Made by a program: the position numbers and the translations under genes
Part shown: positions 1 through 64,000 of the stretch, in pieces
How positions within the stretch are numbered: position 1 is the stretch's first letter
How the letters are laid out: the number at the start of each line of letters is the position of its first letter
Source of the DNA: an uncultured Actinomycetota bacterium
GTDB taxonomy: Bacteria > Actinomycetota > Actinomycetes > Actinomycetales > Dermatophilaceae
Assembly (NCBI GenBank): GCA_963803695.1
Contig: CAWDNY010000011.1
Location: 159,504-223,503, forward strand
Reading direction: 5' to 3'
DNA length: 64,000 bases
Notes under the pieces: model-generated
Told to the model about the DNA's origin: nothing
The model's input: the letters and a program-made list of their open reading frames with translations, nothing else
Database searches by the model: none

Positions 1-730
1 CCGCCGTGATGAGGTCTGGCTGAGGTTGGGAGTCTTCCTCGGCATATACCGGGAAGGTGATTGCCACCCCGGCCACGGGATGGTCCGTGTGGTCGAGCAC
101 CGACGCAGCCACCGAGGCCAGACCTGGTGTCACCAGACCCATCTCCTCGGCATACCCGCGAGTCCGGGTTCGTGACAGCAACGGTCGCAGACTGGTGAGC
201 GATGTCGGGCCGACGTCGTGCCGCTGGACGAAGGCGCCCGGTGAAGGGAAAAGCGCTCGCACCTGGGCGGCTGGCAACGCAGCCAAGATCGCCAAGCCGC
301 TGGCCGTCAACGAGGCGGGCAGTCGCACTCCCACGTCGCTGACCAGTGAAGGGCGTCCGGCAACTCGTTCTTCGATGACGTAGAGGACATCGCGCCCGTG
401 CAAGACCGCGAGATGGGCATTGTGCTTGGTGGTATCGGCTAATCGTGTGAGCAGTGGTCGAGCCACGCGTTGCAGCGGCGCCTGCCTACCGTATGCCGAG
501 CCCAGCTCGAAGGCGGCAACCCCCAGGCCATACGTCCGCTCCTCTGGGAGGTGCACGACGAACCCGCGGTCGATCAGGACGGACAGCAGCCGGTATGTGG
601 TGGAGCGCGGAACGCCGAGCTCTCGCGCGATCGTGGCAGCGGGGACGGGCGCGAGGTGTCGACTGAGCAGCGTGAGGACGTCGAGCGCCGACGCTGCCGC
701 TGGTGCCCTGACCGGTAGCGGCACACTCAT
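1..730 (-). CDS. IclR-family transcriptional regulator (3' end runs off the window start; not in the ORF track)
   Basis: Own translation from ATG at 730: MSVPLPVRAPAAASALDVLTLLS...IARELGVPRSTTYRLLSVLIDRGFV...YGLG (IclR HTH), then LAVLHGRDVLYVIEE...VGVRLPASLTASGLAILA (IclR effector domain). Confidence 0.9.
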   Translation of the reverse strand, partial: MSVPLPVRAPAAASALDVLTLLSRHLAPVPAATIARELGVPRSTTYRLLSVLIDRGFVVHLPEERTYGLGVAAFELGSAYGRQAPLQRVARPLLTRLADTTKHNAHLAVLHGRDVLYVIEERVAGRPSLVSDVGVRLPASLTASGLAILAALPAAQVRALFPSPGAFVQRHDVGPTSLTSLRPLLSRTRTRGYAEEMGLVTPGLASVAASVLDHTDHPVAGVAITFPVYAEEDSQPQPDLITA

Positions 731-781
731 CCTTGACTTCCGGGGGCCGAAGACATGTCCACAAGATACGCACCGCCTGCA

Positions 782-816
782 ATGTAGCGCCTAAGGTAGA
801 TCCCAAGGCGCTACAT
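782..816. promoter_or_regulatory. Perfect 11-bp inverted repeat, probable antitoxin operator
   Basis: ATGTAGCGCCT (782-792), 13-bp spacer, AGGCGCTACAT (806-816), directly upstream of the Phd-type antitoxin. Confidence 0.6.
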
Positions 817-4581: not shown

Positions 4582-6123
4582 ATGGACACAGTGGTCGTGG
4601 GAGTCGCCGGGGTATCGCCCGAAGATGTGGTCGCCGTCGCCCGGCACGGAGCCGCGGTGCGGATCGCCGATGAGTCACTCGCGGAGATGGGCCGGTCCCG
4701 GGCCGCCATTGATGCACTGGCCAGCGACGACCAGCCGCACTACGGCATCTCGACCGGCTTCGGGGCGCTGGCGACCACGCACATTCCAGTGGAGCGTCGC
4801 GCTCAGTTGCAGCGCAGTCTGATCCGATCCCATGCTGCCGGTTCAGGTCCAGAGGTCGAGCGCGAAGTTGTCCGGGCCACCATGCTCTTGCGGCTGTCGA
4901 CTCTCGCGACGGGGAGGACCGGCATACGGCCCAGCAGTGCCGCGGCGTATGCCGACCTGCTCAGTCACGGGATAACCCCCGTCGTGCACGAGTACGGCTC
5001 GCTCGGCTGCTCCGGGGACCTCGCTCCGCTCGCCCACTGCGCGTTAACACTGATCGGCGAGGGGCAAGCGCGCGACGTCTCAGGCGTGTTGATGCCGTCC
5101 GCGCAGGCGTTGGCGGCCGCCGGGCTGGGGCCGGTGGTCCTCGCCGAGAAAGAGGGACTGGCGCTCATCAACGGCACCGACGGGATGCTCGGCCAACTCG
5201 TGCTTGCGCTGCACGACCTCGGCGCGCTGCTCCCCACTGCCGACATTGCCGCAGCGATGAGCGTCGAGGGCCAACTCGGCACCGACGACGTCTTCGCCGC
5301 CGATCTCCAGGCGCTGCGACCCCACCCCGGGCAGGCCATCTCAGCCGCCAACCTGCGGGCGATGATGGCGGGCTCGGACATCCGTGAGAGTCACCGCACC
5401 CCAGCGTGCACTCGGGTCCAAGACGCCTACTCGTTGCGCTGCAGCCCGCAGGTCCACGGCGCGGTGCGCGATACCGCTGAGCACGCGATGACGGTGGCCA
5501 GCCGGGAGTTGGCCTCGGCCATCGACAACCCGATGGTGACGCCCGACCTGCGCGTGGAGTCCAACGGCAACTTCCACGGCGCACCGGTGGCCTACGTCCT
5601 GGACTTCCTCGCCATTGCTGTGGCCGACCTGGCCAGCATCTCCGAGCGGCGAACCGACCGATTCTTGGACCCGGCGCGCAACCACGGATTGCCACCGTTC
5701 TTGGCCGATGACCCTGGCGTGGACTCCGGCCACATGATCGCGCAATACACCCAGGCCGGGATCGTCTCCGAGCTCAAACGCCTCGCCGCTCCGGCCAGCG
5801 TCGACTCCATCCCGAGTTCGGCGATGCAAGAAGACCACGTGTCGATGGGGTGGCATGCCGCCCGCAAACTCCGCCGGGCCTTGGACGGCTTGACCCGGGT
5901 CCTGGCCATCGAAGTGCTCACCGCCGCCCGCGGGCTGGAGCTGCGCGCACCGCATACCCCCTCTCCAGGTAGTGCCGCCGTGATCGACGCCCTGCGAAAC
6001 GCTGGTGTCCCTGGCCCCGGGCCCGACCGCTTTATGACCCCCGAGATCACGCTGGCCGTCGACCTCGTCCAGTCCGGCGCGATCCGTTCCGCCGCCGAAA
6101 CCGCCACCGGCCCGCTGGCCTGA
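4582..6123 (+). CDS. hutH: Histidine ammonia-lyase
   Basis: YGISTGFG, SLGCSGDLAPLAH (MIO-forming CSG), LINGT, VQDAYSLRC, SNGNFHG, QEDHVSMG. Confidence 0.97.
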   Translation: MDTVVVGVAGVSPEDVVAVARHGAAVRIADESLAEMGRSRAAIDALASDDQPHYGISTGFGALATTHIPVERRAQLQRSLIRSHAAGSGPEVEREVVRATMLLRLSTLATGRTGIRPSSAAAYADLLSHGITPVVHEYGSLGCSGDLAPLAHCALTLIGEGQARDVSGVLMPSAQALAAAGLGPVVLAEKEGLALINGTDGMLGQLVLALHDLGALLPTADIAAAMSVEGQLGTDDVFAADLQALRPHPGQAISAANLRAMMAGSDIRESHRTPACTRVQDAYSLRCSPQVHGAVRDTAEHAMTVASRELASAIDNPMVTPDLRVESNGNFHGAPVAYVLDFLAIAVADLASISERRTDRFLDPARNHGLPPFLADDPGVDSGHMIAQYTQAGIVSELKRLAAPASVDSIPSSAMQEDHVSMGWHAARKLRRALDGLTRVLAIEVLTAARGLELRAPHTPSPGSAAVIDALRNAGVPGPGPDRFMTPEITLAVDLVQSGAIRSAAETATGPLA

Positions 6124-6153: not shown

Positions 6154-7823
6154 ATGGAAGGCGCTCGCCCCGTCCGCTCACCCCGCGGCACCCAACTGAC
6201 GGCTCGCTCGTGGGCCACCGAAGCCCCGATGCGGATGCTGATGAACAACCTCGACCCCGAGGTCGCCGAACGCCCCGATGACCTGGTGGTTTATGGCGGC
6301 ACTGGGCGCGCAGCCCGCGACTGGCGCTCGTTCGACGCGATGGTCCGGACGCTGCAGACGCTGCGCGAAGACGAGACGATGCTCGTCCAGTCCGGCCGAC
6401 CGGTCGGCGTGATGCAGACCCATGAGTGGGCACCGCGCGTGCTGATCGCCAACTCCAATTTGGTCGGCGATTGGGCGACGTGGCCAGAATTTCGCCGCCT
6501 CGAGCAGCTTGGGCTGACGATGTACGGTCAGATGACCGCCGGATCGTGGATCTATATCGGGACGCAGGGCATCTTGCAGGGAACCTACGAAACGTTTGCC
6601 GCGGTGGCCGCCTCGCTCGCCTCACGACACCCCGCTCGGTATGCCGGCTCGCTGGCCGGGACCCTGACGCTCACCGCCGGGTGCGGTGGGAGGGGCGCAG
6701 CCGCTGGCGGTCACGCTGAACGGCGGAGTGTGTCTGCTCATCGACGTCGACGAATCACGGCTGCGGCGTCGAGTGAAGTCGCGCTATCTGGATGAGGTGG
6801 CCGAGTCGTTGGAAGCTGGCGTCAAGCGGGCACTGGCCGCCAAGGCGGCTCGCGAGGCTGTGTCGATCGGGGTGGTCGGCAACGCCGCCGAAGTCTTCGC
6901 GGAGTTGCTGCGCCGGGGCGTGGACATCGACATCGTGACGGACCAGACGTCGGCACACGACCCGCTGTCCTACCTGCCGACGGAGGTTGCGCTGGAGGAC
7001 TGGCACGACCTCGCCGACAAGAAGCCGGAGGACTTCACGGATCGTGCGCAGGAGTCGATGGCCCGGCACGTCGAGGCGATGGTCGGCTTCAAAGACGCCG
7101 GGGCCGAGGTCTTCGACTATGGCAACAGCATCCGCGACGAGGCTCGTCAGGGAGGCTATGACCGGGCGTTCGAGTTTCCGGGGTTCGTGCCGGCATACAT
7201 CCGGCCGTTGTTCTGTGAGGGCAAGGGGCCGTTCCGGTGGGCTGCGCTGTCGGGCAATCCCAAGGACATCGCGGCGACCGACCAGGCGGTGCTCGACCTC
7301 TTCCCCGACAATGATCATCTGCACAAGTGGATTCGGGGCGCTCAGGAGCGGGTGGCCTTCGAGGGTTTGCCCGCGCGCATCTGTTGGCTGGGATACGGCG
7401 AGCGCGACAAAGCCGGCGTGAAGTTCAACGACATGGTGGCCTCCGGGGAGGTCGAGGCACCGATCGTCGTCGGGCGTGATCACCTGGACTGCGGCTCGGT
7501 GGCCAGCCCCTATCGGGAGACCGAGTCGATGGCCGACGGGTCGGACGCGATTGCGGACTGGCCGCTGCAACGCCATGGTCAACACCGCCTCCGGGGCCTC
7601 GTGGGTCTCGATTCACCACGGCGGGGGCGTCGGCATTGGCCGATCGCTGCACGCCGGGCAGGTCTGTGTCGCCGACGGCACGCCGCTGGCCCGGCAGAAG
7701 CTCGAGCGCGTGCTGACCAACGACCCCGGGATGGGCGTCATCCGTCACGTCGACGCCGGCTACGACGAGGCCGATGCGGTGGCCGCTGACCGGGGCGTCC
7801 GCATACCGATGCGTGAATCCTGA
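6154..7823 (+). pseudogene. hutU: Urocanate hydratase with two frameshifts
   Basis: [72 protein letters not shown], split over ORFs 6154..6795, 6686..7789 and 7476..7823; 5-nt loss near 6686 and 2-nt loss near 7567. Confidence 0.92.
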
Positions 7824-9833: not shown

Positions 9834-11176
9834 AGTGGCACGCCGACGTCGCTCACCTGCCCGAGGGTGTGCTCCACAACGTGCTCATCGAAGCCGAGGG
9901 AGGCGTGTTCACCCAGGTCGTCCCTGACGCCCAGATCGATCCGGGTGATGTCGTCGAGCGCCTGCCCGGGGTGGTGACGCCCGGCTTCGCGAACGCCCAC
10001 AGTCATGCCTTCCACCGAGCCCTACGCGGCCGGACCCACGACGGAGGCGGCACCTTTTGGACCTGGCGCGAGGCCATGTATGCCGTGGCGCAGCGGCTCA
10101 ACCCAGACACCTACTACGCGTTGGCGCGGGCCACGTATGCCGAAATGGCGCTGGCCGGGATCACCGCGGTGGGGGAGTTCCACTACCTGCACCACGGCCC
10201 CGGCGGGACACCGTACGACGACCCCAACGCGATGAGTCACGCCCTCACTCAGGCGGCCGCCGACGCCGGAATTCGGCTGACGCTGCTGGACACCTGCTAT
10301 CTCGCCGGCGGCCTGGACGCTTCCGGTCATCAGCCACTGAGCGGCCCGCAAAGTCGGTTCGGGGACGGTGACGTCGAGGGCTGGGCAGCGCGGGTGTCTG
10401 CCATGAAGGACTGCGGCGCCGGTGGCCCGGAGCATCTGCGAGTAGGGGTCGCCGCGCATTCGGTCCGCGCGGTGCCCAGGCCTGCGCTGTCCATGATCGG
10501 TCGGGTCGCCCGCAACCTCGGCGGTGCGCCGTTACACGTGCACCTCTCCGAACAGCCTGCCGAAAACGAAGCCTGCCTCGCGGCATACGGGACGGCCCCG
10601 ACCGCTGTGCTGCACGAGGAAGGCTTGCTGGGGGCACACCTCAGTGCCGTGCACGCCACCCACCTCAGCGCCCAAGACATCGAACTGCTCGGGGGTGCTG
10701 GGGTGACGGCCTGCTTCTGCCCTACGACCGAGCGTGATTTGGCCGACGGGATCGGGCCGGCTCGGGCGTTGCTCGACGCGGGAGCGCGCCTGTCGCTCGG
10801 CTCAGATCAGCACGCCGTCATCGATCTCATCGAGGAAGCCCGGGCCCTCGAAATGCACGAACGACTGGCCTCCGGTCAGCGCGGCCGACTCACGCCCGCT
10901 GACCTGATGGAGGCCGCCACCGCGCACGCCTCGATCGGCTGGCCCGACGCCGGGCAGATCCGGGTCGGCGGGCGTGCCGATCTCGTCGCGATCCGCGCCG
11001 ACTCGGTACGCACCACGGGGGCAGACCCCGCGCAGATCGTGTATGCCGCCACTGCCGCCGACGTCGACACGGTCGTGGTCTCGGGCCGTACGGTGGTCAG
11101 CGAAGGCCACCATGCGCTTGGCGACGTCGGTGCCCTGTTGTGTGACGCGCTCGAACCACTGCTGGGAGGCACCTGA
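9830..11176 (+). CDS. hutF: Formimidoylglutamate deiminase
   Basis: [64 protein letters not shown]. Confidence 0.93.
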
Positions 11177-15660: not shown

Positions 15661-15796
15661 GTGCCCACACGATCGGCAGCGAATGGGGATGATCTGCGGA
15701 GAACCGAGCCGATCGCTGGCATGAGGCGGCGGTTGAAGTCGGGGACTCATCCGTTTGGCGGAGGTATGCCGACGGCTGGCCGCATAGCCTGACCCG

Positions 15797-43093: not shown

Positions 43094-43178
43094 AGTACGC
43101 CCCCACCTGGAAAACGCTTTCAGAAAAATGCAAAAGAAGTCTTGCGCAACAGGTCTTTAACATGACATCCTGGTAGAC

Positions 43179-45016: not shown

Positions 45017-45017
45017 G

Positions 45018-46623: not shown

Positions 46624-46625
46624 CC

Positions 46626-55100: not shown

Positions 55101-55491
55101 CCTCGAATCCGCCGATCCGCCCGGCCCCATCAAGGTTGTCGGAGCTGATCAGTTGGATGCGTCGGTCGCGGCCTTCGACGGGTCGCGGCTCGCTGGCCAG
55201 GCTTCGGCTGACGGTGACCTGGGCCGGAGCGAACGCTTCGTCGATGAGTTCTCGTGCTCTACCGTCCTGTTGCCGCGGGTCGTCGGCTTGCCGTGTCTGG
55301 ACCCTGAGAGCCACATCATCGGCCGACTCAGCCCCCGTCAGCGCCTCTCGGGCCGCCACGGTTGCTGCCGCCCTGGAATAGCCGACCGTACCCGCGATGA
55401 TCGCCGTCGTCGCGGTCACCAGCGCCAAGATGGTCAGCACGAGGCCTAACCCTGCTCGTGCGCGGCGCCAGATCAGGGCCCACGACGTCAT
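52153..55491 (-). CDS. FtsX-like large ABC permease
   Basis: RTGEVEFLLARGAS and RRPEVAVLRALG motifs; start inferred at ATG 55491. Confidence 0.85.
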   Translation of the reverse strand: MTSWALIWRRARAGLGLVLTILALVTATTAIIAGTVGYSRAAATVAAREALTGAESADDVALRVQTRQADDPRQQDGRARELIDEAFAPAQVTVSRSLASEPRPVEGRDRRIQLISSDNLDGAGRIGGFEGLIQLTEGQAPESGGETIQGALHTGSAAQWDVSVGDVLTVDGLEVEVTALFRPLDPSAPAWVGDPLAANGFTDDLLGPMVVAPEDLTQFTETPFAQWVIQPDADNLQPDDLGPLAAAAATLRSTMDTEGVAIRGIRVDGDLAPTAERADRNLQTARALNVVPLIVLLTVSVIAVAQLARILASARTGEVEFLLARGASRRQVFGWSLAEAAGISVIGTALGMAVATGALQAVPAGGQQVGTVVLVATLTGLAVLLALIVVTAQQVRHLAQSRLATTRSGRTRQAAAWGSAVLTLTAAGLSWAQLRRYGSPLVTADDGSLSVDYVAGAAPALLLGAAGVLALILFAPIARLGHRATTPTTGLTAHLSTTHISRGLTSYAVPVVLTVLAVGVTTVGGMYAATSADLREGLSSLAQGGDVRATLDDQQVQQNDAIAASPPVADLEGVEAAAPVWTRDTRIAEVDTLLIAAPMDQLAEVAIVPQGAADPGLLSDRLSPAGDEVGGESAGSGGIGIPPGRAASLNVGLDLDVSATTLSDLSADVDDFVDFLVAEQDMTLDDARGEALSARFQDVNGGIDVAISLLIRDIDSGIVSDITVDAFKVSPEISLDDSGALQIAPAGGQESLDISLPASVAGYEVIRIDLLTSPPAPEYDLNATIGVLVDGQSRPATDSWIVDAPEAVRTDEPQDRSGEVQADTEGRLIVTSEGTARPRYEPTGTIRLLPRPRSDDPLPLAITQTVATASDLTVGSAVEINAFGAIVPAEVAAVVDAVPGSLEPDVVLADAGALSQALIDQGTDIGQPTQIWVATADGSDPANIADRAVVVPGIISASAAPTAAVTDANAAVRLVFWVASAGSILLAITGIAAVSATSLAARRPEVAVLRALGMPSRAQARGRALELGTVVLGALIAGVAAGWLVALAIIPELASATTLPGRATLPAALRLELPLWLTLLSIGALAVLIIGATLARKVTHQARDRTYREEVR

Positions 55492-55565
55492 GTCGCTGAC
55501 CCCGTTTCCTCCACGTCGACATCGTGACACGCAGCCACCCCCATTGGCCTGACGTGGACCACCCC

Positions 55566-55617
55566 GATTGGCCTGTGCATTTCCTGTCGCTATAGCGGCA
55601 CAACCGCTCAGGCTAAG
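55566..55617. repeat. REP-like family B, copy 2
   Basis: gattggcctgtgcatttcctgtcgctatagcggcacaaccgctcaggctaag, same orientation as copy 1. Confidence 0.85.
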
Positions 55618-55703
55618 GAATGGGCTGGCGTGTGATCGTCCACATCTCTCGCTGTCCACAGGGACGCAAGCGACAGATGACCTGATCGAGCAGAGTGTGG
55701 CGG

Positions 55704-56639
55704 ATGAATGACAGCCGGGCTGAGCTGGTGATGAGGGCGCAGACCATCGCCAAAGACCACGGCGGGCTGGCCACGCGCAACATGCTGCGCGCCGAAGGGC
55801 TGACCCTCAGCTTCATCCGAGCCCAAGAACGCGCCGGGCGTTGGACGCGCATGGGTCGGCATACCCTCGGCATCACCTGCGCCGTTCCCAACGTTGACGG
55901 CTCGCGCTGGTTGGCCGTCTGGGAGTCGGGGCCGCGGGCGTTCCTCGACGGGGTCAGCGCGCTGCAGGCTGCGGGGCTGACCGGTTGGACCGAGCAGGCC
56001 ATCCACGTGACGGTGGTGGCAGGCAATCGCGTGCATCGGCGGCCGGGGGTGCGGATTCACCGCCTCGACCCTGGCGGAGGGATCATTCGCGCGGGGGTCC
56101 CGAGGGCCGTTCCTGAAGTAGCGGCCATCCGTGCGGCGCAGTGGGCGGCCAGTGATCGAGCGGCGGCGACCCTGCTGGCGATGACCATGCAGCAGGGTTT
56201 GGCCCATCCGCAGCGTCTGAGCGACAGGTGGGCGACGGTGCGCCGGAGCCCCCGGCGAGAACTGTTGGATCAGGTCCTCCTTGACGTATGCCGTGGGGCG
56301 CAATCGCTGGGCGAGCTGGACTTCGCTGTGTTGTGCCGCAAGCGGGGGCTTCCCGAGCCGACCCGTCAGGTGCTGCGGACCGGTCGACGGGGGCGGATCT
56401 ATCTTGATGTGGCGTGGGAAGACTTGGGCGTCCACGTCGAGATCGACGGTGCTCAGCACGCCCAGGGGCTGAACGCCGTCGATGATGCTGTGCGGCAGAA
56501 CGACTCGGCGGTGAACGGCACGGTGAATCTGCGGATCCCGGTGCTAGGGCTCCGGCTGACTCCTGACGTCTTCCTTGATCAGGTGGCTCTGGCCCTCGAC
56601 CGCGCGACGGCGGAGCGCGGCCAGCTCGGGCCCGCGTGA
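55704..56639 (+). CDS. AbiEi-like wHTH plus DUF559/Vsr-like PD-(D/E)XK domain protein
   Basis: DHGGLATRNML...GRWTR N-terminus; GAQSLGE, YLDVAW, VEIDGAQH, DAVRQN. Confidence 0.8.
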   Translation: MNDSRAELVMRAQTIAKDHGGLATRNMLRAEGLTLSFIRAQERAGRWTRMGRHTLGITCAVPNVDGSRWLAVWESGPRAFLDGVSALQAAGLTGWTEQAIHVTVVAGNRVHRRPGVRIHRLDPGGGIIRAGVPRAVPEVAAIRAAQWAASDRAAATLLAMTMQQGLAHPQRLSDRWATVRRSPRRELLDQVLLDVCRGAQSLGELDFAVLCRKRGLPEPTRQVLRTGRRGRIYLDVAWEDLGVHVEIDGAQHAQGLNAVDDAVRQNDSAVNGTVNLRIPVLGLRLTPDVFLDQVALALDRATAERGQLGPA

Positions 56640-56702: not shown

Positions 56703-57530
56703 ATGAAGCCGTGGAGCTTGCAGCCGAGCGGTCCGGGGGTCGCGGAACTCACGTGGACCCTCGATGATCCGTGGTGGTTGGACGCGCAGGCTCCGGCGGC
56801 TTTGGCCGAATTCTTGACCCTGGGGTATGCCGACGGGTTGCACCGCGTCGAGGCGCAGGTGCCGCGCGATGACCGTGAGTTGCGGCATACCTTGCAGCGG
56901 GCGGGCCTGCGCCCCGAGGGTGTTGCGCGGGGACGTGAACTTAACGGCAGCGGAGAGCCCGTCGACGTGCTTCGGCTGGCCCGGCTCGCGGATGACCCGC
57001 TGCCCGGGACCCGCCAGGCGTTTTTGGCGATGCTCAACGCGACGTTGCCGACCAAGCGTGTGATCGCGCAGGGGCTGATCCGCAACGAGCGCAATGACGT
57101 GTTGATGTGCCAGTTGACCTATAAGCAGGAGTGGGATCTGCCTGGTGGGGTCGTCGATCCGCATGAGTCACCGGCCGGTGCGTTGGCCAGGGAGATCAGC
57201 GAGGAGCTCGGTGTCGAGGTGCACGCCGGGGCGCTGTTGGCGATCGATTGGCTGCCGCCATATCGGCAATGGGACGACGCCGTGCTGCTCGTGTTTGACC
57301 TCGGCGTCCACCCTGACCTGCCGGGGCGCGCCCGCCTGCAACCGACCGAGATTGCCGGCCTGCACTGGTGTGACACCGCGCAGATCCAGCAGCGGGCTGC
57401 TCCGTATGTTGCTCGGCTGCTGACGCAACTGCGTTCCACGGTGGGAAATGAGGCTCGGGCGGAGTCGTCAGTGGGACTGGACGGACCGGCGTACCTCGAA
57501 GACGGGGTTCCGTACGACTTTCAGGGTTAA
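56703..57530 (+). CDS. NUDIX hydrolase with a GNAT-like N-terminal segment
   Basis: LPGGVVDPHESPAGALAREISEELG Nudix box; LHRVEAQV...LQRAGLRPEG resembles the RimJ/L C-terminus. Confidence 0.85.
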   Translation: MKPWSLQPSGPGVAELTWTLDDPWWLDAQAPAALAEFLTLGYADGLHRVEAQVPRDDRELRHTLQRAGLRPEGVARGRELNGSGEPVDVLRLARLADDPLPGTRQAFLAMLNATLPTKRVIAQGLIRNERNDVLMCQLTYKQEWDLPGGVVDPHESPAGALAREISEELGVEVHAGALLAIDWLPPYRQWDDAVLLVFDLGVHPDLPGRARLQPTEIAGLHWCDTAQIQQRAAPYVARLLTQLRSTVGNEARAESSVGLDGPAYLEDGVPYDFQG

Positions 57531-57539
57531 CGCTCTCCG

Positions 57540-58469
57540 CTAAGAACCAGGATTGGGCACGAGGCGGTTGCGTGAGGTGAGGACTTCTAGGGGTTGGGGT
57601 GGGCCGTCGATGGTGACGGTGCCCGGGATGGGCTGCCAGGCTGCGCCGTTGACCGAGTATTCGCCGCCGTAGATGACGCTTATCGAGGGATTCACGGTTT
57701 CCTTGGCGAGGTAGGTGTGTTGAATGTCGCCGTCGGGCCAGGTGCCACCGAGTGAGGACACTGGCCCCTGGGCGTCGCCGTCGCCAAAGTCGTACGTCGC
57801 GTTGACGAAGGTGGGGCGGATTCGGACGTTGTAGCCGATGAGGACGGTGTTGTCGATCTCTTGGGGTTCGACTCCATCTTCTGGCCACTGGAGTTCGAAG
57901 AAGGTGGGGATGTTGACCAGCGTTTGTCCGCCGGGGGGTTCCATGGAGGTTTGGGGAAGCGCGAATGCGGTCGAGTGGAATTGGGCGATGATCTGGTTGA
58001 TGCCGAGGACTGGTGCGCCGCCGCCGGATCGTGCGGGCAGGGCGTCGGGGAAGCATGTGGTGCCGAATTGCTCCCAATCGCCGGTGTCGCCGTCGCGCGT
58101 GACGATGCGCCGGTACATGCGGTGCCAGATCGCGGTGCCTTGTCCGTTGTCGGCGCAGTAGGTGGCGGCTGCGGCGCAGACCTCAGTGTTGATGTTTTCG
58201 ACCGTGTTGCCCTCGCAGTTCACGATGACGAGGTACTCGTACCACTCACCCGGATCCGGATCATCAGCTTTGGCTCCCGCGGGAAGCACATCCTTCAAGC
58301 CTTCGATCACAGCGCGCTCGGCATTCGTGTCGATAGTGCCGTTGCCGCCATTCGTTTCCGAGGTGGCCCCTCCCCGTCCGGGGGTTGTGGTCTCGTCTGC
58401 AGCCGAAGCGACGCCAGGAACGCTGAGTGCGATCACGAAGCTGGCGATTGCTGCGCTACGCCTCAACAC
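57540..58469 (-). CDS. Secreted protein with four Cys and a C-terminal PKD/Ig-like segment
   Basis: Signal peptide (…VPGVASAA), LVNIPTFF, YDFGDG, HTYL, YGGEYSVNG..W..IPG. Confidence 0.75.
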   Translation of the reverse strand: MLRRSAAIASFVIALSVPGVASAADETTTPGRGGATSETNGGNGTIDTNAERAVIEGLKDVLPAGAKADDPDPGEWYEYLVIVNCEGNTVENINTEVCAAAATYCADNGQGTAIWHRMYRRIVTRDGDTGDWEQFGTTCFPDALPARSGGGAPVLGINQIIAQFHSTAFALPQTSMEPPGGQTLVNIPTFFELQWPEDGVEPQEIDNTVLIGYNVRIRPTFVNATYDFGDGDAQGPVSSLGGTWPDGDIQHTYLAKETVNPSISVIYGGEYSVNGAAWQPIPGTVTIDGPPQPLEVLTSRNRLVPNPGS

Positions 58470-59076
58470 TCTTAATCCACTCGATCAAGAATCCGCCCGA
58501 TTCAAAGTTCAACTGAATTGCCCAATCGAGTTCAGGCACGGGTTCAGTGCGAGCCACGACATCGTTAGCCGCATCGAGGATTTCGGCCTCCAGAGCCTCG
58601 CCTTCGAGCTGGACGCGGTAGCCGGATTCGAAAGGAAGCGCCTCGATTGAGTCGACCGCAAGTGAATCGATCTTGTATCGGTCGCCCGCGTCCTCGAGTT
58701 CGCTCGTTTCTTTCTCGAGCACGTCGCACGTGGCGCACCCAGGTTGGCCGTAGGGCTCCAGCAGCCCGGATTGAGGGACCCGGCCCGTGTAGTTGAGCAG
58801 GTCGACGTAGTACTGGACGAAGGCTTCTGCTCCGTCTTCGGTGTCCTCTGTCGCTGCCTCGGGCAACTCGGGGATGCCGGGGTCTTCGCCAGCGTCGGTG
58901 GGGGCCGCGCTGGTCTGCTCAGCATCATCAGGTGTGGCTGTCGCGGACGCTTCCGCGCGATCAGTCAGGGAGTCCTCAGCGGTGGGCGGCGGCGAGGGTT
59001 CGGTCGTGGAGCAAGCCGCCACCGACCCCAGCAGGATGGACACAGCCATCACGGACATACGTCGCACAGAGATCAC
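58456..59076 (-). CDS. DUF6318-like lipoprotein
   Basis: LLGSVAAC lipobox, PT-rich linker, PELPEAATEDTEDGAEAFVQYYVDLLNY, CATC. Confidence 0.75.
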   Translation of the reverse strand: MISVRRMSVMAVSILLGSVAACSTTEPSPPPTAEDSLTDRAEASATATPDDAEQTSAAPTDAGEDPGIPELPEAATEDTEDGAEAFVQYYVDLLNYTGRVPQSGLLEPYGQPGCATCDVLEKETSELEDAGDRYKIDSLAVDSIEALPFESGYRVQLEGEALEAEILDAANDVVARTEPVPELDWAIQLNFESGGFLIEWIKSVEA

Positions 59077-59440
59077 CTCAGGGTTAGACAGGACAACTCA
59101 ACTGCTCACGGAAGCCACAGTCTGACGTATCTGCGCAGCCTCGGGCGAACTGTCCACAGGAACCACAGGCCGGGCACCATTGGTGTGGATAACTCTTGAG
59201 GGGCCACCGCGAAGTCTGCTCAGATTGGCGGTGTTCAACATTGAGCCGTTTTGCTGATGAGTGAATGAGTCCTATTGGGGCTGACCCAGATCGATGAAGG
59301 GCATCGACCAAGTGTCCCGATTGAGCTCCGTCACCGACATCCGCCTATCCCCCCGACGTGCCGGATCTGCCTGTCGCTTCTCTCTGGTGCTCAGCTCAAG
59401 CGTGTGACGAAATTGACGCTATGGCGCGAATCATGTCGCA

Positions 59441-59498
59441 CGGTTGGGGCCAGCACCACGCGGCTGACCCACTGGGAGCACTGAGACGACCCGGGCCG
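59441..59498 (+). ncRNA. Candidate Na+ riboswitch (DUF1646-motif-like)
   Basis: CGGTTGGG...AGACGACCCGGGCCG; the two ends can pair (CGGUU/GGCCG plus GGG/CCC); located in the leader of TrkA-C and CPA2 antiporter genes. Confidence 0.45.
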
Positions 59499-59536
59499 AA
59501 AGACCCCTAAGGTGAGCACGTGAGAAAGGCTCAACC

Positions 59537-60037
59537 ATGATGAACCGCCATGCCCCCGAGGTTGTCGAAACGATCCTGCCTGGGGTAGGCGTCAAGTACG
59601 AGCTCGCCACCCGAGGCGGGACCCCGCTCTCCCTCGTGGTCAACCGCGAGGGCGGCTCCGTGCTGATCGCGTACGACGCCCGCGACCCTGACCGGGCATC
59701 CCTCACCGTGCCCCTCGATGACGACGAAAGTGAAGCCCTCGCTGGCCTGCTCAACGGCGCGTCGATGGTCCATCACGTCAGCGAAGCCGCCAAACTCCCC
59801 GGCCTGCAAACCTCGAGAATCCGCATCGACGACCAAGCGCCCTTCGACGGCCTGACCCTCGGCGAGACCCAAGCCAGGACCCGCACAGGCTGCTCCATCG
59901 TAGCCATCGTCCGGGGCGTCGACGTCGTGACATCCCCGGGCCCGGAGGAGCGATTCCGCGGCGGCGACCTGCTCGTCGTCGTCGGCACCGAGCCTGGCGT
60001 GGAGCAACTCCGCAAGATCATCTGGCACGGTCCGTAG
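59537..60037 (+). CDS. Cation:proton antiporter regulatory subunit (KhtT-like, TrkA-C domain)
   Basis: ETILPGVGVKY, RTRTGCSIVAIVRG, SPGPEERFRGGDLLVVVGT. Confidence 0.88.
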   Translation: MMNRHAPEVVETILPGVGVKYELATRGGTPLSLVVNREGGSVLIAYDARDPDRASLTVPLDDDESEALAGLLNGASMVHHVSEAAKLPGLQTSRIRIDDQAPFDGLTLGETQARTRTGCSIVAIVRGVDVVTSPGPEERFRGGDLLVVVGTEPGVEQLRKIIWHGP

Positions 60038-60047
60038 GGAGCCCACC

Positions 60048-61205
60048 GTGGACCACCTGGCCATCCTGTTCGTCGAGCTCGGCGCGCTCTTCGCAGGGTT
60101 AGCCATCTTGGGTCTGCTGGCCAAACGCCTGCACATCTCTGCGATCCCGTTCTATCTCCTGGCTGGGCTGGCTTTCGGCGACGGCGGCCTCGTCAAACTC
60201 AACGCCGCCGGTCCATTTGTCGAGGTGGCAGCCGAGATCGGCGTCATCCTGCTTCTCCTCACCCTCGGCCTGGAGTTCACCTCCTCAGAATTGATGGCCA
60301 GCCTCAAGCGGCATCGCACCTCCGGCGTGGTCGATTTCGTGCTCAACGCCACCCCAGGCTTCGCAGCCGGCTGGCTACTCGGTCTCCCAGCCGGCGGCAT
60401 ACTCGCGCTCGGCGGGATCACCTGGATCTCCTCCTCCGGCATCGTCGCGCGCGTGCTGTCCGACCTCGGCCGCCTCGGCAACCGCGAAACCCCGTCGGTC
60501 CTGTCGCTCCTCGTGCTCGAAGACATCGCGATGGCGCTGTATCTCCCGATTCTGGTCGTCGTACTCTCCGGCGGCGGGCCGTGGCAGGCGCTCGCCGGGG
60601 TGTCGCTCGCCCTCGGCGCGGTGCTATTCATCCTGCTCATGGCCCATCACGGCAGCGATCGGCTGGAGCGGATGCTTGATCACCCCGACGACGAGCAGGT
60701 CCTGTTTCGGGTGCTCGGGCTGACCTTGCTCGTAGCTGGCGTGGCGCAGGGCGTGGGCGCCTCGGCCGCGGTTGGAGCGTTCCTCGTTGGTATAGCGATC
60801 CCGCACGCGTTGGCCGATCGGGCGCGGCACCTGCTCAGCCCGCTGCGTGACCTGTTTGCCTCGGTGTTCTTCGTGGCGTTCGGGCTGGCCACCGTCCCGG
60901 CCAATATGGTGCCGGTGCTCCTCCCCGCCCTCGGCTTGGCCCTGGTCGGGATTCTCACCAAACTTGCGACGGGTTGGTATGCCGCGAGGCACGACGGCGT
61001 CGGCCTTCCGGGGCGGTTGAGGGCTGGGGGAGCGCTGGTCTCTCGCGGTGAGTTCTCCGTGGTCATCGCGGGTTTGGCCGTCGGCGCCGGTGTCGGACAG
61101 GTGGCCCCGCTCGCGGCGGCATACGTCATGATCTTGGCGGTGCTCGGCCCGATCCTCGCCCGCCTTGCCGACCCAGTGGGCGAGCGCTTCCTTCCTGCGC
61201 GCTGA
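60048..61205 (+). CDS. CPA2-family cation:proton antiporter (KhtU/KefB-like)
   Basis: AEIGVILLLLTLGLEF, ISSSGIV, LVLEDIA, LRDLFASVFFV, RGEFSVVIA. Confidence 0.92.
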   Translation: MDHLAILFVELGALFAGLAILGLLAKRLHISAIPFYLLAGLAFGDGGLVKLNAAGPFVEVAAEIGVILLLLTLGLEFTSSELMASLKRHRTSGVVDFVLNATPGFAAGWLLGLPAGGILALGGITWISSSGIVARVLSDLGRLGNRETPSVLSLLVLEDIAMALYLPILVVVLSGGGPWQALAGVSLALGAVLFILLMAHHGSDRLERMLDHPDDEQVLFRVLGLTLLVAGVAQGVGASAAVGAFLVGIAIPHALADRARHLLSPLRDLFASVFFVAFGLATVPANMVPVLLPALGLALVGILTKLATGWYAARHDGVGLPGRLRAGGALVSRGEFSVVIAGLAVGAGVGQVAPLAAAYVMILAVLGPILARLADPVGERFLPAR

Positions 61206-61289
61206 GCCGCTGCGGAGGAGGCTTCTGGGGCAGTGATGTACACGGCGGTCACGCCGGGTGCAGAATCGGCTCGATATGAGAACTCTCCG

Positions 61290-64000
61290 ATGAACCCCGA
61301 GCCCGCTGCCCCCTCGCACGACCATCACCACCACGGCGGGATGTGCGGGGGGTTGGATCACCACTCCGGTGACTACACGCCGCAGCAGGTGGCCGATCTC
61401 GACCTCGTGTTGGCTTTCAACCGGCGGATGAGCGAGGCCATCAACGCTGGCCTCGACGTCACCGCCACCGAAGCGTTCCTGGACCCGGACCCGTTGCGAT
61501 ACATGTGGGTTGACGAGGGGCAGGGCCGGATCGCCGAGCAACTGGCCGGGGCCGAGGGTGTGCTGGCCCAGGCTCCTCGTCTGGTTGGCGAGCCGCGCGA
61601 TGGGGTGGAGTGGATCGAGGAGTCGGCAAAGGCCGCGCGGCCCTCGATCGCCGCAGCGTCCGACGGCACGACGCTGACCACGTGGATCGAGTGGGTGCCC
61701 GAGCGCGGGGAAGTCCTGCGGGCTCAAGTCCGCCCGCCGAGGGGTTCGAGCGAGTCGGCCGTAGTCGAAGAGATCGCCACCGATCCGGTCGACCTGTTTC
61801 GCCCCGTCGCCGTTGTCGACAAGGCCGGGACGTTCTGGGTGTTCGTGGCCCGGCGAGACACCCCGAGCAGCCCCGTCGGGGTGTATGCCGCGTGCCGAGG
61901 CGGCGACGGATGGTCGCCGTTGGAGCAGGTCAGCGACACCGGACACCCGTCCTTCAACCACGAAGTCGCCCCGGGTGCGGGCGGTGACGTGACCTTGACC
62001 TGGCAGGCTCCGGTCGACTCCGGCTTCGGCATCTACGCACGGACCCGGACCACCGAAGGGTGGGGGCCGACATCGCTGGTCTCCGAGGGGGTCGAGGCCA
62101 ACGTGTGGGACCCGGCGGTCGCGGTCCTGCCCGACGGCTCGAGCATGTTTGCCTGGTCGGAGTATGCCGACGGTTCTTATCGCGTCGTCCTGCGCACCCG
62201 CTCGGCGGAAGGCGCGCTCGGCGAACCGCGCATCATCACTGGCGGCAGCGATTACGCCCTGCACCCGAGCCTGGCCGTGACTAGCGACGGCCGGATCTGG
62301 TGCGCCTTCGACGTCATCACCATGCACGGCCACGCGGGCAGTGGGCCGACCAGGTTGCGACCGGCTCACGAGGTCGGTGCCGACCCCACCCGCATCGCGG
62401 GTGTCCGAACCTCCGGCGACAGCGTGCCCTCAGAGCTCATCCCCGAAGTCTCGGCCAGTATCAGGGTCGTCGAGGTGCTGCCCGACCGCGTCCGCGAGGC
62501 TCCTGGAGAGCTGGCGGCACAGCTCGACGTCGTCCCGTCCGGGCTGCCCAAGCTCGTCGCTGGGGTCGAGGGCGGGTTGGCCGTCGTCTATCGGGTGCAC
62601 CGCAAACTGCCGCTGATGACCTACTACTGGGAGGTCGCCGCGCAGGCGTTGGGGCCGCAGGGCTGGGAGCCGGCCACGACCTTCAGCGGGACCGACGGGA
62701 CATTGGAGGAGCCGGCCGTGACGGCATACCCCGGCGGGTTCACAATTGCTGCTCAGATGGATCGGCGGCTGGAGCGTGCGCTGACGTGGAGCGAGGGGTT
62801 TGGCGGGCGCGATTGTCCATATCTCTACGAGCATCACGGGTCGGTGATCTGGCACGGGATCCACGGGTTGGGGCAGATCGTGCACGCTCACCGAGGCGCG
62901 CTGCCGCAGATGTGGACTCCAACTCAGAGCGGCGATGAGGCAGCGCAGGTCGAGTCCGACCAGCGCATCGAGGCGCGGAGGTGGGTCGTGGACGCCGACG
63001 ACGCCAGCCCGCGCGTGCGACCGAGCGTCACTGTTGGGGGCGAGAAGATGCAGCTCTATTGGGGCGACCTGCACCGGCACTCCCTGGTCAGCCGGTGCAC
63101 GTCCGGTGACGAGCCGAGCCTGGAGGACTTCTACCGCTACGCCTGGGACGTCTGCGATTACGACTTCTGGGCGGTCACCGATCACGCCGAGAACTCCTCG
63201 GATCATCAGTGGTGGAGCATCCAAAAGATTGCCGATCTCTTCCACATCCCCGACCGGTTCGTGCCGCTCTACGGGTTTGAGTGGACGTCGGCGAGCAGTG
63301 GCCATCAGAACGTGATCTACGGCGACGTCGAACGTGGGGCACCGCTGTTTTCGTGCATGGCCGACGCTACGAACACTCCGGCCGGGCTGTGGGATGCGCT
63401 CAAGCAACACCCGGCCTACCCCGCGATCACGATCCCGCACCACCCCGGCGCGGCGATGGTCTACAACGACTGGGACTACCACGATCCGGAGTATTCGCGC
63501 CTGGTCGAGATCTTCCAGGCGTGCCGCGGCAACTACGAGACTCCCGGGTGCTTTCGACAGTATTCGGACGGCACGGCGACGGGCACGTTTGCCCTCGACG
63601 GGTTGTTGCGCGGGCACCGGTTCGGGTTCATCGCGTCCTCCGATCATGGGCACGGCGCGAGTTATGTGGGGGCGTATGCGCGGTCGCTAGATCGGGGCGA
63701 GGTGTTCTCGGCGTTGCGCGAGCGGCGGACCTTTGCCGCGACCACGCGTGACGTGACGCTCGATGTGCGGCTCCTCGGGAGTGAGAGCGGCGAGGCTTTC
63801 ATGGGTGAGGAGGCCGTGATCTCCGGCTCGCGGACAGTGCGGGTGCGCGCGTCGGGGTATGCCGACCTGGCCCGGATCGAGGTCGTCCGTGATGGACAGC
63901 TGGTGCACGTGGTGTCACCGCCGGTCGCCGCGATTGGTGAGGTCGAGGTCGGTGTGCGAGTCGAGTGGGGAGAAGCGGAAGGGTCGACGGTGTGGGACGG
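61290..64000 (+). CDS. Large DUF3604/PHP-like metallohydrolase with an N-terminal propeller-like region (runs off the window; not in the ORF track)
   Basis: Own translation, frame spot-checked at 61290, 62220, 63048 and 63900: His-rich HDHHHHGGMC start, repeated P.lA...DG...aW motifs, YWGDLHRHS, AVTDH, GFEWT, IPHHP, EIFQ, IASSDH. Confidence 0.8.
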   Translation, partial: MNPEPAAPSHDHHHHGGMCGGLDHHSGDYTPQQVADLDLVLAFNRRMSEAINAGLDVTATEAFLDPDPLRYMWVDEGQGRIAEQLAGAEGVLAQAPRLVGEPRDGVEWIEESAKAARPSIAAASDGTTLTTWIEWVPERGEVLRAQVRPPRGSSESAVVEEIATDPVDLFRPVAVVDKAGTFWVFVARRDTPSSPVGVYAACRGGDGWSPLEQVSDTGHPSFNHEVAPGAGGDVTLTWQAPVDSGFGIYARTRTTEGWGPTSLVSEGVEANVWDPAVAVLPDGSSMFAWSEYADGSYRVVLRTRSAEGALGEPRIITGGSDYALHPSLAVTSDGRIWCAFDVITMHGHAGSGPTRLRPAHEVGADPTRIAGVRTSGDSVPSELIPEVSASIRVVEVLPDRVREAPGELAAQLDVVPSGLPKLVAGVEGGLAVVYRVHRKLPLMTYYWEVAAQALGPQGWEPATTFSGTDGTLEEPAVTAYPGGFTIAAQMDRRLERALTWSEGFGGRDCPYLYEHHGSVIWHGIHGLGQIVHAHRGALPQMWTPTQSGDEAAQVESDQRIEARRWVVDADDASPRVRPSVTVGGEKMQLYWGDLHRHSLVSRCTSGDEPSLEDFYRYAWDVCDYDFWAVTDHAENSSDHQWWSIQKIADLFHIPDRFVPLYGFEWTSASSGHQNVIYGDVERGAPLFSCMADATNTPAGLWDALKQHPAYPAITIPHHPGAAMVYNDWDYHDPEYSRLVEIFQACRGNYETPGCFRQYSDGTATGTFALDGLLRGHRFGFIASSDHGHGASYVGAYARSLDRGEVFSALRERRTFAATTRDVTLDVRLLGSESGEAFMGEEAVISGSRTVRVRASGYADLARIEVVRDGQLVHVVSPPVAAIGEVEVGVRVEWGEAEGSTVWD

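Follow-up and report, generated by a model that had tools for sequence, protein, structure and literature searches.

The Window and Its Octamer

We analyzed a 64,000-bp stretch of actinobacterial DNA (contig CAWDNY010000011.1 of assembly GCA_963803695.1, positions 159,504–223,503; hereafter the window), which carries the octamer CGGCATAC about once per kilobase on both strands. A self-trained codon model called 51 genes covering 86% of the window. Their Pfam content includes hut genes, the seryl-tRNA synthetase gene (SerRS), a HisKA_3 two-component pair, ABC transporters, CopA/CsoR, PurB, CydABDC, and two very large FtsX-type permeases, among others. No tRNA genes were found in the window, and there were no Rfam matches within it at gathering thresholds. 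Its SerRS is 93–95% identical to proteins of metagenome-assembled genomes (MAGs) of Ornithinimicrobium sp.; judged by sequence, the window is Ornithinimicrobium DNA, and among sequencing runs it occurs only in metagenomes from sediment and soil. An exact-protein look-up gave no record identical to its SerRS. The cumulative GC skew increases monotonically from end to end, indicating a single replichore.

The word is not a palindrome (its reverse complement is GTATGCCG). An earlier note, made by reading the letters of the window, had counted about 67 copies of the 7-mer GGCATAC and about 66 of the full octamer, nearly equally divided between the strands, and had guessed a GC content of about 67%. 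Computed values are very close: 67 copies of the 7-mer, 66 exact copies of CGGCATAC (35 on the plus strand and 31 on the minus strand), and 66.3% GC. The word covers 0.8% of the DNA and ranks first among all 8-mers of the window, the runner-up having 41 copies.

Such abundance is far beyond expectation under every null model used. Dinucleotide-preserving shuffles gave 1.36 copies (standard deviation 1.1, maximum 5), and an order-3 Markov model gave 3.68. Shuffling synonymous codons within each gene, which preserves every protein and per-gene codon usage, yielded 5.22 ± 2.13 sites in coding sequences (CDS; maximum 12 in 1,000 shuffles), where 61 are observed, and shuffling codon order yielded 1.83. 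The observed/expected ratio is 18–48 at the DNA level and 12 after synonymous shuffling. The earlier note had proposed a word selected at the DNA level, of the kind of the DNA uptake sequences (DUS) of Neisseriaceae or the HIP1 octamer of cyanobacteria, and had named a ratio near one after codon-preserving shuffling as grounds for giving this up. The proposal is supported, as the enrichment outlasts shuffles that keep codons and proteins intact.

The edges of the word are sharp at 8 bp and the composition of its flanks is near background. Its 24 one-mismatch variants have 0–10 copies each in the window, and as a group they total 58 versus 57.3 in a codon-aware expectation; a halo of near copies was therefore rejected. 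The near-cognate word CGGCGTAC is depleted (1 copy versus 6.4 expected). Neighbors reached by C-to-T deamination show no clear depletion, at low power: observed and expected counts are 0 and 0.44 for TGGCATAC, 0 and 1.1 for CGGTATAC, 1 and 1.0 for CGGCATAT, 1 and 1.2 for CAGCATAC, and 5 and 1.4 for CGACATAC.

Second in frequency among the 8-mers of the window, with 41 copies, is CGACCTCG; palindromic extensions of it also occur, for example ACCTCGAGGTCG (5 copies). In two related loci described below (L006 and L018), CGACCTCG likewise ranks near the top, and its abundance probably reflects an ordinary high-GC codon context (GAC-CTC-G).

Coding Context

Sixty-one of the 66 sites lie in CDS and five (8%) in noncoding DNA. 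Relative to the gene, 30 are in sense and 31 in antisense orientation, and all six frames are occupied. The most frequent frame is xxG-TAT-GCC-Gxx (Tyr-Ala, antisense; 28 sites), followed by xCG-GCA-TAC (Ala-Tyr; 14), GGC-ATA (Gly-Ile; 10), CGG-CAT-ACx (Arg-His-Thr; 6), Gly-Met-Pro (2), and Val-Cys-Arg (1). Use of Ala-Tyr and Tyr-Ala dipeptides in one frame, which the earlier note had offered as a possible trivial cause, does not account for this pattern; the codon and frame examples it had given at 4920, 4947, 9677, 14700, and 22265 are all correct.

The word forces rare codons into genes: 10 of the 27 ATA codons and 28 of the 109 TAT codons of the window lie inside it. Peptide contexts in which the word could be written by synonymous choice number 85, and 61 of these (72%) contain it, compared with 3.8 predicted from codon usage. 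The compatible peptides are themselves overrepresented (85 versus 50.5 ± 6.9 in residue-shuffled proteins; maximum 72 in 500 shuffles). Therefore, the word has shaped amino acid sequence in addition to codon choice. When 15 loci were pooled (228 sites), 89 sites were sense and 97 antisense, and the frame ranking was identical in every genus; 42 sites fell in noncoding DNA versus 23 expected, a 1.8-fold enrichment.

Occurrence in Related Organisms

The comparison set comprised 80 SerRS-centered loci (numbered with L), one genome per species, from among the matches listed, which included one close Ornithinimicrobium-like locus; closer relatives were fetched individually. The earlier note had called for a survey of relatives, and this revealed that the word is enriched clade-wide across genera of Dermatophilales. 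At 0.3–0.9 sites/kb, CGGCATAC is present in the SerRS loci of Terrabacter, Phycicoccus, Pedococcus, Ornithinibacter, Lapillicoccus, Intrasporangium, one Nostocoides, and Flexivirga, as well as in several Dermatophilaceae/Intrasporangiaceae MAGs and in a record named “Rothia sp. ARF10” that groups inside the clade. More than 50 other actinobacterial loci among the matches listed have 0–0.1 sites/kb, including those of Cellulomonas, Cellulosimicrobium, Kineococcus, Brevibacterium, Nesterenkonia, Nonomuraea, Streptosporangium, and Rhodococcus. Synonymous shuffling confirmed the enrichment in individual loci, with 16 copies versus 1.4 expected in L018, 16 versus 1.1 in L007, and 12 versus 0.8 in L010.

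The closest relative found is L081 (GCA_038258285.1, JBBSQA010000005.1), with 95% SerRS and 81% nucleotide identity. Its word density is 0.33 sites/kb, three-fold below that of the window, and its GC content is 68.8% versus 66.3%. All five of its aligned sites are common to the window, whereas 17 of the 22 aligned window sites are missing in L081. At least six of these 17 occur in the more distant L001 or L082, and the most parsimonious reading is that L081 has lost them; about nine others occur in no relative and are probably gains in the lineage of the window, as far as these alignments suggest. At 8 of the 17 nonconserved orthologous sites, the A that the window carries at word position 5 corresponds to C or G in L081. 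The word thus seems to be in decay in the L081 lineage. Sites are gained and lost by point substitution, for example ATC to ATA or CGGCCTAC to CGGCATAC.

Conservation of position within one dialect is mixed. Seven of ten sites are conserved between the window and L001 (null 0.18; P-value = 5e-4), and several other pairs are near background; the abundance of the word is therefore maintained while its positions turn over. A scan of viral contigs for the inverted pair returned at least 119 matches (GC 40–66%) with 0.027 further sites/kb, which are chance matches and uninformative on phages of the clade, and no plasmid from the clade turned up when plasmids were searched with CopA.

Several records in this set appear to be misnamed. 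In the SerRS tree, “Rothia sp. ARF10” (L007, JAUZVC010000001.1; 0.89 sites/kb) falls together with Ornithinibacter and Nostocoides. L024 (JAKBFW010000040.1) and L064 (CALRWH020000024.1), labeled “Proteobacteria bacterium” and “Pseudomonas synxantha,” have actinobacterial-type SerRS (61–66% identity) and a GC content of 65–70%, which suggests mis-binning.

Dialects

When each locus was searched without bias for its most exceptional 8-mer, the top word in clade members lacking CGGCATAC proved to be a one-letter relative of it. The dialects CGGCATAC, CGGCATCC, CGSCGTAC, CGBCATAC, and CCGCATACC follow subclades of the SerRS tree and are lacking in outgroups. Humibacillus (L006) has 21 copies of CGGCATCC and none of CGGCATAC, while sister Terrabacter loci carry 10–14 copies of CGGCATAC; Nostocoides sp. 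Soil756 (L002) likewise has CGGCATCC (12 copies) and no CGGCATAC. Ornithinibacter (L009) is mixed, with eight copies of CGGCATCC and four of CGGCATAC. A basal MAG (L015) has 21 copies of CGGCGTAC and 12 of CGCCGTAC, Branchiibius (L020) has 11 and 17 of the same words, and L013 has nine of CGCATACC and six of CCGCATAC. In Flexivirga (L042), CGG-CATAC, CGC-CATAC, and CGT-CATAC occur 8, 10, and 10 times. In L018 and L007, the word is extended to ACGGCATAC, A being present at position −1 in 16 of 19 and 14 of 19 sites, respectively.

The dialects also exceed the synonymous-shuffle null in CDS: 16 versus 4.1 ± 1.6 in L006, 14 versus 3.0 in L015, 14 versus 3.5 in L020, and 5–8 versus about 0.5 for each CGB form in L042; Cellulomonadaceae controls are at expectation. 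In alignments between dialects, the exact dialect-defining substitution was found at the orthologous position in 13 of 63 sites, a count that includes some reciprocal and hence nonindependent comparisons, versus 0.42 expected from arbitrary 8-mers.

Other actinobacteria have exceptional words of a different kind. The palindromic octamer ATCGCGAT is the top 8-mer in two Cellulomonadaceae-type loci, L019 and L025 (Cellulosimicrobium and Cellulomonas; 10 versus 0.55 and 10 versus 0.83 expected), and also in Ornithinibacter (L009; 6 versus 0.3), and CCCCGGGG is the top word in Kineococcus (30 versus 8). These may be HIP-like palindromes.

Inserted DNA, Spacing, and Motif-Free Regions

Three stretches had been described in the earlier note as free of the word, and they are bounded exactly as given there, by sites at 22265/28977, 42296/45529, and 56883/60395. 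The largest gap (6.7 kb) is unusual (P-value = 0.04 for the maximum gap). It contains a motif-free insertion of 6.2 kb (22578–28820) that is missing from L081 and L001, in both of which a glyoxalase-like gene directly adjoins copA at this place. The cargo consists of a sortase, an insertion sequence (IS) with Transposase_29, an ice-binding-like protein, and an OmpR-type response regulator. None of the four opportunities in the insertion carries the word, compared with 59 of 74 elsewhere in the window (Fisher P-value = 0.003). Depletion in foreign DNA, as the note had claimed, is borne out here: the largest stretch without sites is a real insertion without the word.

The other two stretches are 42304–45528 (BlaI-type repressor, ArsR-type regulator, major facilitator superfamily transporter, and Phd antitoxin) and 56891–60394 (NUDIX, a hypothetical protein, DUF6318, and TrkA-C). 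These 3.2–3.5-kb gaps are within the lengths given by random spacing; each has two interior opportunities, and none of the four carries the word. In all three regions together, none of eight opportunities is used (P-value = 1.4e-5).

The IS (about 2.46 kb) has a Transposase_29 open reading frame (ORF) at 24014–26395 (minus strand) and perfect 15-nt terminal inverted repeats at 23989–24003 and 26439–26453. It interrupts an array of 30-nt tandem coding repeats (23919–24010 and 26420–26601), which is followed by a second array of 36-nt period (26602–26739). Both arrays appear to belong to the gene for the ice-binding-like surface protein beside the sortase.

The ratio of 35:31 within a single replichore speaks against polarity of the kind shown by Chi or the FtsK-orienting polar sequences (KOPS), as the earlier note had held for Chi; over ten relative loci oriented by SerRS the ratio is 63:75.

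Inverted Pairs and Hairpins

Close pairs of sites are no commoner than by chance (12 versus 13.2 expected), and an excess of them was rejected; 10 of the 12 are inverted, and the hairpin form that they take is nevertheless informative. In relatives, several of these pairs form long, perfectly matched hairpins in which the word makes up the foot of the stem (GGTATGCCG...CGGCATACC). Such terminator-like stems were found in L004, L059, L006, L010, L008, and L012, at −32 to −47 kcal/mol (−42 in L004, −39 in L059, −36 in L010, −47 in L008, and −43 in L012). The L004 hairpin sits after a stop codon and before the next gene, and the orthologous hairpin of Humibacillus (L006) has the ATCC dialect in both arms. 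The window has only loose pairs (4920/4947, 21635/21692, and 56825/56883), none of which is a clear terminator pair.

An identical start-to-start offset of 27 bp was observed in five inverted pairs: 4920/4947 in the window, 7659/7686 in L004, 7357/7384 in L059, 9407/9434 in L010, and 9057/9084 in L006. The L004, L059, and L006 pairs are probably orthologous; those of L010 and the window (in hutH) are not obviously so.

Individual Sites of the Window

All sites below are exact copies of CGGCATAC, given with the strand of the word and the residues encoded at the site. The antisense Tyr-Ala frame is used on the plus strand at 148–155 (IclR-family gene, G-Y-A-E), 30880–30887 (T-Y-A-D), 33514–33521 (purB, V-Y-A-D), 35144–35151 (S-Y-A-E), 37228–37235 (L-Y-A-G), 38959–38966 (E-Y-A-A), 40468–40475 (cydA, L-Y-A-A), 45529–45536 (S-Y-A-V), 45720–45727 (S-Y-A-D), 45762–45769 (P-Y-A-V), 47537–47544 (G-Y-A-V), 48320–48327 (V-Y-A-V), 50053–50060 (V-Y-A-D), 50887–50894 (G-Y-A-V), and 53907–53914 (M-Y-A-A); those at 30880 and 33514 are kept in L001. 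On the minus strand the same frame is found at 4947–4954 (hutH, Y-A, TAT GCC) and 10078–10085 (M-Y-A-V), both kept in L081; at 20433–20440 (L-Y-A-V) and 21692–21699 (S-Y-A-G, paired with 21635), both kept in L001; and at 10135–10142 (T-Y-A-E), 11041–11048 (V-Y-A-A), 15263–15270 (P-Y-A-E), 16711–16718 (G-Y-A-D), 56825–56832 (G-Y-A-D, paired with 56883), 60977–60984 (W-Y-A-A), 61883–61890 (V-Y-A-A), 62162–62169 (E-Y-A-D), and 63857–63864 (G-Y-A-D).

Ala-Tyr is encoded in sense on the plus strand at 7191–7198 (P-A-Y), 10581–10588 (A-A-Y), 11768–11775 (S-A-Y), 15430–15437 (A-A-Y), 17918–17925 (A-A-Y, kept in L082), 61117–61124 (A-A-Y), and 62722–62729 (T-A-Y). At 7191, L081 and L082 have CGGCCTAC, and the site is a likely gain in the lineage of the window. 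Minus-strand sites of this frame are 491–498 (S-A-Y, kept in L082), 2719–2726 (A-A-Y), 12870–12877 (A-A-Y), 30782–30789 (A-A-Y), 41363–41370 (cydA, S-A-Y), 42296–42303 (T-A-Y, the left edge of the 3.2-kb motif-poor stretch), and 51353–51360 (T-A-Y).

Gly-Ile, also in sense, occurs on the plus strand at 4920–4927 (hutH, with the rare ATA codon; inverted pair with 4947), 9677–9684 (ATA, where the L081 ortholog has ATC), 17742–17749 (D-G-I-L with ATA, where L081 has CGGCATCC), 18799–18806 (D-G-I-R, kept in L081), 21635–21642 (R-G-I-P, kept in L081, L082, and L001), and 60395–60402 (G-G-I-L). On the minus strand it occurs at 33799–33806 (A-G-I-P), 35926–35933 (cydDC, A-G-I-P), 39665–39672 (cydB, V-G-I-L), and 53568–53575 (I-G-I-P). 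Arg-His-Thr is encoded in sense at 14700–14707 (plus, CGG CAT ACC), 22265–22272 (plus, the last site before the insertion, kept in L081 and L001), 28977–28984 (minus, in copA, the first site after it), 47956–47963 (minus), 55857–55864 (plus), and 56883–56890 (plus, the left edge of the 3.5-kb motif-poor stretch).

The antisense frames G-M-P and V-C-R are represented by 29405–29412 (plus, kept in L001) and 52447–52454 (plus), and by 56286–56293 (minus), respectively. The site at 15764–15771 (minus) is intergenic between an AXE1-like gene and a histidine kinase gene, and 34905–34912 (plus) is also intergenic. Two minus-strand sites are noncoding by gene calls: 46631–46638, which falls in a possible N-terminal extension of the ORF at 45604–46950, and 52128–52135, within a long ORF at 49298–52366. 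Finally, 6639–6646 (minus) lies within the N-terminal ORF of a split hutU.

Other Features of the Window

The urocanase gene hutU consists of two overlapping ORFs, at 6154–6795 (Urocanase_N) and 6686–7789 (Rossmann and C-terminal domains). It is one gene of 533–564 amino acids in L081 and L082, and the split in the window is a frameshift that reflects either a pseudogene or an error of assembly. A Phd/YefM-type antitoxin gene (45278–45553, minus strand) and a MazF/PemK-type toxin gene (46768–47115, plus strand) lie 1.2 kb apart on opposite strands with an NAD-dependent epimerase gene between them, and do not form an obvious cognate pair. Two neighboring, very large predicted membrane proteins (about 1,020 and 1,170 amino acids by longest ORFs) are encoded at 49298–55659 (minus strand). 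The sole recognizable domain of both is a C-terminal FtsX-like permease, and a two-cassette ABC ATPase (47688–49301) lies upstream.

Comparison with Known Sequence Signatures

The closest parallels of CGGCATAC are the uptake sequences of two proteobacterial families, words repeated hundreds to thousands of times for which competent cells show a preference in uptake or transformation. Like CGGCATAC, DUS are short nonpalindromic words present about once per kilobase on both strands (PMC3630211, PMC7371117), and they occupy about 1% of the DNA (PMC3630211). Both are intragenic with a frame bias, form inverted pairs as terminator-like hairpins, have few one-mismatch copies, and are rare in mobile DNA. 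Both are family-wide, with single-base dialects that follow phylogeny and with two dialects in one genome in some cases (L009 and L042 here, Simonsiella for DUS). Frame bias, terminator pairs, and dialects have been presented as defining features of DNA uptake-enhancing sequences (bioRxiv 10.1101/2025.10.24.684340). On the other hand, DUS are 10–12 bp long and the present word 8 bp, and about half of DUS have been reported in terminators (bioRxiv 10.1101/2025.10.24.684340), while the window has 8% noncoding sites and no clear terminator pair. In addition, the host here is a high-GC Gram-positive actinobacterium without outer membrane, in which a ComP-type minor pilin is not expected.

The uptake signal sequences (USS) of Pasteurellaceae are similar in being mostly intragenic and equally oriented, in using frames that favor tolerable peptides, and in having subclade-specific variants. 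USS consist of a 9-bp core with AT-rich flanks; the flanks are near background here, and the phylum is different. According to the work of Findlay and Redfield as cited in bioRxiv 10.1101/2025.10.24.684340, USS measurably reshape the proteome, a property that the present word would share on that account. ComN is a predicted USS receptor (bioRxiv 10.1101/2025.06.16.659825).

HIP1 (GCGATCGC) is also an octamer that is hyperabundant in coding DNA at comparable density, conserved across a phylum or family, though some lineages have lost it. It has been proposed to act in DNA uptake and is recognized by two methylases (bioRxiv 10.64898/2026.06.24.733823). However, HIP1 is palindromic, its methylases being DmtA and DmtC, and is reported as quasi-periodic, whereas CGGCATAC is nonpalindromic, has no known methylase, and is randomly spaced.

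The words read by TraB (at clt) and by FtsK/SpoIIIE (KOPS and the SpoIIIE recognition sequences, SRS) are likewise 8-bp nonpalindromic words on double-stranded DNA, and the TraB setting is actinobacterial. Copies in clt are few, clustered, and direct, on a plasmid or element, whereas here they are dispersed at about one per kilobase in both orientations, and the sole mobile segment lacks the word; KOPS and SRS are skewed between strands toward the terminus, in contrast to 35:31 here. Chi, too, is a short overrepresented word that marks the organism's own DNA, but it is polar, co-oriented with replication, and modestly enriched, while the present word is nonpolar and enriched 12–48-fold.

Possible Function of the Word

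The properties of this word are those that are hallmarks of the uptake sequences of Neisseriaceae and Pasteurellaceae, and such properties would be expected from sequence-biased transfer coupled to homologous recombination. The clade-wide range, the in-place switching between one-letter dialects, the words paired in hairpins at gene ends, the near-saturated opportunities, and the reshaped peptides clearly shift the reading toward the DUS/USS model rather than that of HIP1. A reasonable, if tentative, hypothesis is that CGGCATAC may be a self-DNA tag, recognized by a sequence-specific component of some pathway for importing or transferring DNA and accumulated by recombination-coupled drive, as DUS and USS are; we consider it slightly short of an even bet.

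Under this hypothesis, a DNA-binding component of the pathway would prefer double-stranded DNA carrying the exact 8-mer. The most likely pathway would be natural transformation, which proceeds with Flp/Tad pili in Micrococcus luteus (PMC4322843), a member of the same order (Micrococcales). Preferred fragments would replace their homologs by recombination, so that mutations creating the word would spread and those destroying it would be disfavored, a molecular drive that might be reinforced by selection for exchange with kin. The word would gradually fill almost every position permitted by coding constraint on both strands, inverted pairs would form at gene ends, where hairpins are tolerated, and newly acquired foreign DNA would lack it. 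If the specificity of the reader changed, the genome would follow by single-base changes at existing sites, giving rise to dialects.

By extension, the family-level clade around Ornithinimicrobium, Terrabacter, and Nostocoides (Dermatophilales) may possess self-DNA recognition for DNA exchange. This would be the first word for uptake or transfer specificity outside Proteobacteria (plus Cyanobacteria, if the proposal for HIP1 holds). Its reader would be unrelated to ComP/ComN, for example a protein associated with Flp/Tad pili or ComEA, or an 8-bp reader of the FtsK/TraB type, and its changes in specificity would have rewritten thousands of sites into dialects. We give this proposal, too, not quite half of our credence.

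Several observations weigh against such a role. We know of no naturally transformable member of the clade, and our literature search gave no paper linking Intrasporangiaceae with natural transformation and no uptake, transfer, or methylation data from the clade. The known or predicted receptors of DUS and USS, ComP and ComN, belong to the minor pilins of Gram-negative type IV pili and probably do not exist here, and none of the annotated genes of the window is a candidate reader protein, a competence gene, or a methylase. Noncoding DNA of the window is not enriched (5 sites versus 9.4 expected). The sites are spaced no more evenly than random (coefficient of variation 0.87 with the insertion removed; random 95% range 0.79–1.24; P-value = 0.16), so that even spacing or periodicity was not supported. 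Moreover, each of the sequence features would also fit other processes that act on specific sequences throughout the genome, for example binding-site selection or directed repair.

A close variant of the favored hypothesis, which we regard as unlikely, would be reading of the word by a double-stranded DNA translocase of the FtsK/SpoIIIE/TraB type, in conjugative transfer (like that of actinomycete integrative and conjugative elements, AICE, or TraB) or cell-to-cell chromosomal transfer and not in the uptake of free DNA, with biased export or import and recombination driving its accumulation. The winged-helix gamma domain of these pumps recognizes 8-bp nonpalindromic words, and the present word is exactly 8 bp long, nonpalindromic, and sharp-edged. 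Chromosomal FtsK/SpoIIIE words are strongly strand-skewed, in contrast to the ratio of 35:31 here. TraB-type conjugation is an actinobacterial specialty, and the restriction to one clade, the dialects, the switching in place, and the absence from the insertion fit any transfer-biased drive. Streptomyces TraB recognizes 8-bp repeats in clt (PMC4447253), which provides a precedent, and clt-like chromosomal sequences have been proposed to mobilize Streptomyces chromosomal DNA (PMC11571958). Nevertheless, clt as known comprises a handful of clustered direct repeats in a cis-acting locus of a mobile element that encodes TraB, and not words dispersed both ways at about one per kilobase, nothing in clt biology corresponds to the hairpin pairs at gene ends, and no TraB-like gene or conjugative element was found in the window.

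A DNA methyltransferase target, or a linked sequence-directed repair or gene conversion, with the abundance kept by biased repair or by selection for marks as proposed for HIP1, appears about equally improbable. HIP1 has a similar density and two methylases, and its enhancement of transformation is reported to depend on methylation (bioRxiv 10.64898/2026.06.24.733823). The depletion of CGGCGTAC (1 versus 6.4) is as expected from directional conversion of a near-cognate word. Methyltransferase specificity readily shifts by single-base steps, which could yield dialects and switching in place. However, CGGCATAC is not palindromic, unlike HIP1 and the outgroup words ATCGCGAT and CCCCGGGG; to our knowledge, contiguous asymmetric 8-bp specificities are very rare among methyltransferases, and restriction-modification targets are usually avoided, not enriched. 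Variants due to C-to-T deamination are not depleted, at the low power noted above, and repair of the very-short-patch type enriches modestly, not 12–48-fold. In the supplements of methylome surveys, neither the word nor genera of the clade are present.

Slightly less probable still is a binding site of an abundant chromosome-organizing or nucleoid-associated protein, with selection for binding keeping about one site per kilobase and no DNA transfer involved. The genome-wide spread independent of strand and gene, the coevolution with a DNA-binding protein that dialects and in-place switching would allow, and the conservation between the window and L001 (7 of 10 sites versus null 0.18) are all consistent with it. 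Near-background turnover in most same-dialect pairs, together with random spacing, implies that single sites are not individually needed. Furthermore, known nucleoid proteins bind degenerate or AT-rich sites rather than an exact, mismatch-intolerant 8-mer, and rare codons (ATA, TAT) in 72% of possible contexts plus altered peptides would be a large cost for binding that does not depend on position.

A polar signal like Chi or KOPS, serving a recombination nuclease (RecBCD/AdnAB) or chromosome segregation, is very improbable: both are overrepresented 8-mers and the word is missing from foreign DNA, but the lack of polarity (35:31 in one replichore and 63:75 in ten oriented loci), the frequent inverted pairs and hairpins, and an enrichment far above that of known Chi sites (12–48-fold) all contradict it. 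Finally, a by-product of codon usage, of dipeptide preference (Tyr-Ala, Ala-Tyr), or of a dispersed repeat (a repetitive extragenic palindrome or miniature inverted-repeat transposable element) can practically be dismissed: 42 of the 61 coding sites are indeed in the two frames encoding these dipeptides, but synonymous shuffling gives 5.2 sites versus 61, codon-order shuffling and the opportunity analysis agree, four other frames, noncoding DNA, and rare codons are used, outgroups of similar GC and codon usage lack the word, and as to such repeats, which are extragenic units with an extended conserved sequence, 61 of 66 sites are in CDS with unique, near-background flanks and arise by point substitution.

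Implications

Full-text literature searches for the word itself, for actinobacterial uptake sequences, and for genera of the clade brought up no description of it. Uptake sequences have been treated as confined to two proteobacterial families (bioRxiv 10.1101/2025.10.24.684340), and in the literature searched, hyperabundant words of the uptake type are known only from these, with a recent proposal for HIP1 in cyanobacteria. The present word is a DUS/USS-like signature in a new phylum, different in length from both, and its reader is presumably different too.

Words of the uptake type are the clearest genomic footprint of sequence-biased DNA exchange. If the proposed role is true, the word would be a third independent case, in high-GC Gram-positives, and would suggest that a novel type of sequence-specific DNA receptor exists. 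Close genera with switched dialects and a sister lineage with an apparently decaying word are natural experiments for a comparative-genomic search for this receptor. The word is also a simple marker for foreign DNA, binning, and taxonomic checks in the clade. Even if the reader is a methylase or a binding protein, a force that drives rare codons into 72% of contexts and reshapes peptides is an unusual constraint on genome evolution. If the word does serve as a self-DNA tag, DNA exchange biased toward kin would be widespread, though unnoticed until now, in a clade that matters in soil, in sediment, and for the removal of phosphorus from wastewater (the polyphosphate-accumulating organisms of Tetrasphaera/Dermatophilaceae).

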